Part shown: positions 53,899 through 53,993 of the stretch, piece after piece
How positions within the stretch are numbered: the stretch's first letter is position 1
How the letters are laid out: the number at the start of each line of letters is the position of its first letter
NCBI RefSeq assembly: GCF_048403405.1
Contig: NZ_CP183129.1
DNA length: 64,000 nucleotides
Source: Escherichia coli
GTDB lineage: Bacteria > Pseudomonadota > Gammaproteobacteria > Enterobacterales > Enterobacteriaceae
Direction: 5' to 3' (one strand)
Notes under the pieces: model-generated
What the model saw: only the letters and a program-made list of their open reading frames with translations
Databases searched by the model: none
What the model was told of the DNA's origin: nothing
Translations under genes and position numbers: made by a program

Positions 53899-53968
53899 AG
53901 ATGTTGTTCTGCCAATGTTATGCCGCTGCACCCTCAACTTACGTTATCCCAACTTGTGACTGTTATTC

Positions 53969-53993
53969 GGCGCTCCACGGAGCGCCTTTTTTT
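53969..53993. terminator. terminator at the malG-psiE junction
   Basis: GGCGCTCC-AC-GGAGCGCC followed by TTTTTTT; T-run overlaps the psiE stop codon. Confidence 0.75.

Follow-up and report, generated by a model that had tools for sequence, protein, structure and literature searches.

XylE, a member of the major facilitator superfamily, is a low-affinity D-xylose/H+ symporter. Published Km values are 63–169 µM for XylE versus 0.2–4 µM for XylFGH (PMC10989795). In an MG1655-derived record, the gene order is malG, a 371-bp spacer, xylE (1,476 bp), a 43-bp spacer, and psiE. The 3’UTR of malG is the source of MalH, an sRNA with a published length of 104 nt that was mapped in K-12 (Iosub et al. 2020, PMC8081044) and that extends from the final few malG codons through the stop codon and 3’UTR to the terminator. 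MalH is described as an Hfq-associated RNA that regulates ompC and MicA. xylE is a known accessory gene; ancestral reconstruction placed it among the transporters enriched in the A/B1 (B1A) sublineage (Gonzalez-Alba et al. 2019, PMC6896753), and Salmonella has been reported to lack it (PMC11610547). The arrangement without xylE is already known as well, being common and present in the reference genomes of CFT073, ST131, Nissle 1917, and 042.

The DNA analyzed here is a 64-kb stretch of an E. coli genome (the window), for which an earlier note had pointed out that xylE appears to be absent between malG and psiE. This observation is correct yet ordinary, because the empty site is a common, already sequenced variant carried by a third of E. 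coli genomes. Very probably, the locus has an old presence/absence polymorphism in which a self-contained 1,797-bp xylE cassette is either carried or missing, and the window represents its empty-site allele. What our analysis adds is the exact indel with its T-run boundaries, the assignment of the spacer to MalH, a correction concerning the supposed bidirectionality of the terminator, and the likely old age of both alleles.

Results

The malG–psiE junction in the window

The features of the junction are as follows:

53008–53898, + strand: malG, ORF of 296 aa (NCBIfam MalG equivalog, 610 bits, cut-off 261; annotated malG in the identical record TUM14771)
53992–54402, − strand: psiE, ORF of 136 aa, convergent with malG (NCBIfam PsiE equivalog, 289 bits, cut-off 222)
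53889–53992, + strand: predicted MalH sRNA, ends approximate (published 104-nt length counted back from the T-tract)
53969–53986, + strand: malEFG/MalH terminator stem-loop with a 7-bp G+C-rich stem and a 4-nt loop (terminator scan)
53987–53993, no strand: T7 run, the empty attachment point of the 1,797-bp cassette (14-region E. coli alignment)

malG closes the malEFG operon for the maltose ABC transporter, with malE and malF identified upstream in the window by their NCBIfam models. The psiE product, a phosphate-starvation-inducible inner-membrane protein, is identical to K-12 PsiE (WP_000202902.1). ORF list and NCBIfam models agree with the earlier note in that malG ends at 53898 and psiE at 53992, leaving a gap of 93 bp (53899–53991); the last two T’s of the T7 run belong to the psiE stop codon, read on the complementary strand. 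When XylE was used as a tblastn query, the 64-kb window gave no homologue. Six complete genomes, among them MS 69-1 and TUM14771, match the window at 100% identity across 20 kb with the junction included; the literature on the identical strain MS 69-1 gives no phylogroup. Because these six independent assemblies agree, collapse of the cassette during assembly has practically no probability left as an explanation for the gap, and the same holds for relocation of xylE within the genome, since wherever the gene is present it is single-copy and located at the malG–psiE locus, and empty junctions and xylE are complementary in number (see below).

The region harbors a second presence/absence polymorphism, an intact 526-aa SopA-family gene (yjbI in K-12; window 44333–45913, − strand) between ubiC and malM, the K-12 and O111 copies of which carry a frameshift. 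A stretch of about 1,848 bp that includes yjbI is missing from the B2-like strains UPEC957C, PAR, 2009C-3133, and RIVM_C040348, and also from Nissle and HH97. At ~54515 and ~54544, in the psiE–yjbH intergenic region, the alignment has 76 and 13 extra columns for K-12, O157, and O111. These segments include a 144-bp annotated ORF and have the look of a REP-type insert; they are missing from the window and the other aligned empty-site strains, and the K-12-type insert is present in the empty-site strain HH97. On the protein level, the 90% cluster containing the window PsiE also lists Pgi and YjbH and has Pgi as its representative, apparently a chimeric cluster and thus a database artefact. This mixture of proteins made it useless as a route to Salmonella and E. 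fergusonii.

The exact indel

To define the indel, the window was aligned with 13 other E. coli regions, giving six xylE-positive and eight empty-site rows in total. The earlier note had placed xylE between malG and psiE in K-12, and had named direct adjacency of the two genes in K-12 as the finding that would prove this placement wrong; K-12 indeed carries xylE at exactly this spot. The 95 nt following the malG stop (53899–53993) are base-for-base identical in window and K-12, through the hairpin and the T7 run. Thereafter, K-12 has 1,797 bp of extra DNA (locus L001 4595–6391); the two sequences meet again at ACTCCCGC, where the psiE end begins. The flanks comprise the same genes at 98.8–99.3% identity. 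A megablast comparison placed the break point at query positions 590–594, in the T7 run. The extra DNA consists of a 276-bp upstream region (34% G+C), xylE (1,476 bp), and the gene’s own terminator hairpin (CAGCACGCCG..CGGCGTGCTG, -20.4 kcal/mol) followed by T5. The indel is uniform across the alignment, all six occupied alleles reading T7-cassette-T5 and all eight empty rows T7, so that the absence of xylE noted for the window corresponds to a 1,797-bp gap relative to each of the six xylE-positive strains.

The junction had been described as clean, with neither scar nor repeat nor mobile-element remnant. For the window this is accurate; the occupied allele, however, is bounded by a T7/T5 direct repeat. 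The clean appearance stems from the location of both cassette ends in terminator T-runs (T7, T5), and the presence of a T-run at each end also means that the cassette boundary can be slid by five bases. The cassette encodes xylE only, with no target duplication and no recombinase. Neither flanking repeats beyond the T-runs nor terminal inverted repeats were detected in K-12 (L001 4480–6480) or the window (53700–54300), and nothing therefore suggests a mobile element. An insertion or excision site of an IS, transposon, integron cassette, or genomic island was considered and dismissed, as the hallmarks of such sites were not found. The short direct repeat TTTTT occurs at both cassette ends and the window retains a single T7 run, which is the configuration of a slipped-strand deletion product, namely a segment bounded by short direct repeats of which one copy is kept. 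Yet the same sequence would result whether the cassette was deleted between the T-runs or inserted into a T-run, and the clean junction is therefore unable to tell the direction of the event. Comparison of the xylE upstream region with the xylA–xylF intergenic region for XylR operator likeness gave only short A+T-rich matches at chance level.

The spacer: terminator and MalH

The gap contains a single strong hairpin, GGCGCTCC-ACG-GAGCGCC at 53969–53986, directly followed by T7 (53987–53993). On the + strand it has all attributes of an intrinsic terminator: a 7-bp stem with six G-C pairs, a 4-nt loop, U7, and a predicted RNA folding energy of -14.7 kcal/mol (z = -3.1). The stem is kept across genera via compensatory variants (GGCGCTC/GAGCGCC versus GGCGGCC/GGCCGCC). 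Of the earlier description as a single bidirectional terminator hairpin, the first part stands, whereas bidirectionality is not supported by the sequence: the T-tract is on the + strand only, the consensus scan made a call for the + strand but none for the − strand, and on the latter the stem is followed by GAAUAACAG, with no T-tract. Nor does the xylE hairpin of K-12 have a U-tract when read towards psiE.

Over the 95 nt that follow the malG stop, the window is identical to the K-12 region where MalH was mapped. By this sequence identity, the 93-bp spacer is to be regarded as the body of the published MalH sRNA (malG 3’ end plus terminator), which would explain why its core (..gccactgc.accctcaa..cttgtgactgtt..) is conserved across genera. 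An Rfam scan of the spacer returned no matching family. We propose that the malG–psiE spacer be annotated as MalH sRNA instead of empty intergenic DNA.

Frequency of the empty site in E. coli

The alignment of the junction to K-12 and other E. coli genomes suggested in the earlier note was extended to 5,426 complete genomes. The empty junction aligned at full length in 1,786 of them and xylE was found in 3,638, nearly always once on the chromosome (a median of one location per genome); the two counts add up to 5,424. Since the two sets are complementary, empty-site strains presumably do not have xylE elsewhere. By comparison, xylFGH is present in 5,405 of the 5,426 genomes (99.6%). The empty set includes CFT073, an O25b:H4-ST131 strain, Nissle 1917, and 042, and xylE-positive E. 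coli include K-12, O157, and O111. All 1,786 empty genomes share one junction form, with 19 of them in the 90–95% identity band.

Next to psiE, the window carries the SNP haplotype 54006A, 54022T, 54024A, and 54043C, a minority type among empty genomes. The junction haplotype of the window was found in 178 of the 1,786 empty genomes and in a single one of 3,630 xylE-positive genomes, and the nearest xylE-positive relatives of the window are ~1% diverged over 20 kb. For these reasons, it is very improbable that this strain or clone on its own has recently lost xylE by deletion. The T-run microhomology at both cassette ends does offer such a deletion a plausible slippage route, and strain HH97 (see below) exemplifies a K-12-like haplotype without the cassette, but the same junction recurs in all 1,786 genomes over very different backgrounds.

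The one xylE-positive genome with the window-type psiE 3’ haplotype beside the cassette is NY1601 (L088 11728–11848), which is either a recombinant or a relic of the parental haplotype. A four-gamete violation 13–30 bp from the junction traces back to NY1601 alone, 1 of 3,630 xylE-positive genomes, and was discarded as a sign of recurrent deletion. In the empty-site strain RIVM_C040348 (L092, equivalent to window ~53400–53980), the SNP pattern of the malG 3’ region resembles that of E. whittamii, and its hairpin-loop variant CTCTACGG is seen in another Escherichia species, which suggests that this region may have been imported from another species.

The junction in other species

A psiE-centred scan with one genome per species outside E. 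coli yielded 80 loci. The tight empty junction was present in about 65 of 78 Enterobacteriaceae species, including C. koseri, Enterobacter, Kluyvera, Kosakonia, Trabulsiella, and most Klebsiella and Raoultella, and in all four Escherichia species sampled besides E. coli (E. albertii, E. whittamii, and two others). Outside E. coli, the exact malG–psiE site was occupied by xylE in K. oxytoca and eight C. freundii complex members and nowhere else in the scan; the copy of C. sedlakii is more distant, on the malG side of psiE. In all three cases the cassette boundaries are the same as in E. coli and the flanks are native to the respective genus. C. braakii ATCC 51113 retains a 386-bp xylE remnant (L020 6409–6797), in which the upstream 100 bp and the last 117 bp survive together with two internal fragments. 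Other locations exist as well: in Shimwellia blattae, xylE is part of the xyl locus, with xylB-xylA followed divergently by xylE-xylR, and in Entomohabitans it resides on the other side of psiE (malG, a BON/LysM gene, psiE, xylE, pgi). The xylB-xylA and divergent xylE-xylR arrangement was also encountered in a 4.26-Mb record labelled Salmonella Choleraesuis, the label of which may be wrong.

When presence and absence were mapped onto the flank-gene tree, about three gains stood against 15 or more losses, and parsimony thus prefers gains of xylE. This brings up the possibility of primary absence, according to which the lineage of the window never had xylE and kept the pre-insertion arrangement, the cassette having been gained long ago by an A/B1/C/E-type ancestor by homologous replacement, the donor being a relative in which malG-xylE-psiE was already in place. 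In line with primary absence, most Enterobacteriaceae, and each of the four other Escherichia species sampled, show the tight junction, a single junction form is shared by all 1,786 empty E. coli genomes, basal-type B2 strains (CFT073, ST131) are empty, the B1A sublineage is enriched in xylE (Gonzalez-Alba et al. 2019, PMC6896753), and Shimwellia has its xylE in the xyl locus instead. The gene is also compositionally atypical, with a GC3 of 0.54 versus 0.63–0.67 for its neighbors and an upstream region of 34% G+C.

Age and diversity of the cassette

Several observations weigh against this scenario. First, no donor was found. The nearest xylE outside E. coli is that of Citrobacter, which at ~84% DNA identity is as distant as core genes, and protein searches returned no closer donor of the K. 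oxytoca or E. coli XylE, in a database whose clustering at 90% identity limits the resolution of such a search. Second, the 14-region E. coli alignment revealed no foreign flanking sequence in xylE-positive strains. Third, the diversity of xylE is as deep as that of E. coli itself: the cassette varies by 0.5–2.8% within the species, comparable to its flanks. O111:H8 xylE even contains a 450-bp patch (L094 11250–11700) that is 6.7% diverged from K-12, a level seen between Escherichia species, as opposed to ~1% elsewhere in the gene. The 30 differences in the patch are mostly synonymous (three change an amino acid), and the patch is equidistant from Citrobacter, which would imply another xylE-bearing lineage at Escherichia-species distance. 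In the species-wide search, the O26 and O111-type xylE alleles constitute the 97.3% class.

Beyond E. coli, xylE divergence roughly equals flank divergence in the C. freundii complex and K. oxytoca, and among K-12, four Citrobacter species, and K. oxytoca, xylE shows the same pattern of identities as malF and malG. We initially took this match as proof of vertical descent but have downgraded it: between genera it is weak, because any two of them are ~82–85% identical, and it is informative within Citrobacter.

The earlier note had left the choice between loss of xylE by this strain and its gain by K-12. Neither holds if taken as a recent event at the strain level; a K-12-specific gain is at odds with the presence of xylE in two thirds of E. 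coli and its deep allelic diversity, and both alleles very probably are older than the diversification of E. coli.

Evidence on scarless switching

Two genomes illustrate that the site may change its state without leaving a scar. Citrobacter sp. FP75 has the tight empty junction and is nested inside the xylE-positive Citrobacter clade. E. coli HH97 (CP116409) agrees with K-12 at 208 informative sites in a row, on both sides of the junction, and shows 0–1 mismatches per kb versus K-12 around it; nonetheless it lacks the cassette. Judged from FP75 and HH97, scarless switching does appear to happen. In a third genome, the Nissle isolate EcN_Sk (CP172017), 123 informative sites across the junction are identical to K-12 with the B2-type indel states kept. 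Both HH97 and Nissle are thus K-12-identical for many kb around the junction, yet without xylE and yjbI, and Nissle shows small B2-type islands exactly at other indel sites, as if recombination had overwritten SNPs but not indel states. We refrained from taking the two strains as proof of a fresh scarless deletion, as a short conversion patch or recombination that keeps the recipient’s indel state explains them equally well.

Two further findings favor primary absence over loss. One is that the directly visible xylE losses are messy: IS1 took part in those of TOE17, 675SK2, and Shigella, and C. braakii has kept a decayed remnant. In TOE17, an IS1-mediated deletion extends from xylE nucleotide 248 through psiE and yjbEFGH; in the three Shigella loci, xylE is truncated by IS1, malEFG is gone, and PsiE is annotated with 132 aa. 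The other is that no empty genome with O157-type or O111-type flanks was found, the nearest matches of synthetic empty alleles being 99.5% (O157) and 99.4% (O111) identical. Taking both sides together, we consider primary absence quite possible, though short of probable.

Discussion

The reading we prefer is that the window carries one of two old alleles. In the one that is empty, MalH and its intrinsic terminator, which form the 3’ end of the maltose operon, would run straight into the convergent psiE stop; in the occupied allele, the cassette would be placed exactly between the terminator T-run and this stop. The strain presumably inherited the empty allele. As to how empty alleles arose in E. 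coli, we lean slightly towards a cassette that was already present in the Escherichia lineage and was lost on rare occasions without a scar. Such losses could have occurred by slippage between the two T-runs, or by replacement with an empty allele via flanking homology, after which the empty alleles would have been kept as lineage-linked variants. The locus may thereby serve as a clean example of how a scarless junction taken by itself does not distinguish gain from loss.

A more far-reaching reading combines several of these elements, with xylE as a togglable cassette bounded by terminators, recombination that overwrites SNPs but not the indel state, and psiE transcription antisense to MalH. 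The T-tract/hairpin ends would then allow scarless removal or restoration by homologous replacement over evolutionary time. We regard this combination as unlikely and mention it as a speculation. If it were true, Pho-regulated psiE transcription running antisense into MalH could link phosphate starvation to porin and maltose regulation in empty-site strains.

With respect to physiology, the empty site would mean the loss of the low-affinity symporter only. The strain is predicted, like a third of E. coli, to be without a low-affinity xylose/H+ symporter and to rely on XylFGH for xylose uptake, where the presence of xylFGH refers to the species-wide figure of 5,405 in 5,426 genomes. Such reliance on XylFGH would be relevant to the engineering of xylose fermentation and to metabolic models built on K-12.

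Among known systems, slipped mispairing between short direct repeats that lie beside palindromes is a natural point of comparison. The occupied allele has T5–T7 repeats, each located immediately 3’ of a G+C-rich hairpin, and removing one repeat together with the intervening DNA gives the exact window sequence, as would insertion into a T-run. Here, the resemblance is one of allele sequences, and the population data show that switching is rare. For MalH (Iosub et al. 2020), the window sequence is identical to the K-12 source region including the terminator, but the setting differs: in K-12 the terminator is followed by the xylE upstream region, whereas in the window it abuts the end of the convergent psiE, so that any read-through from psiE would be antisense to MalH. 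With regard to the empty-site reference genomes, B2 strains lack the SopA-family gene between ubiC and malM that the window strain has. At the junction itself, CFT073, ST131, Nissle 1917, and 042, as well as the other Escherichia species, are identical in architecture to the window, all featuring the malG stop, ~70 nt of 3’UTR, the GGCGCTC..GAGCGCC hairpin, and a T-run overlapping the psiE stop.
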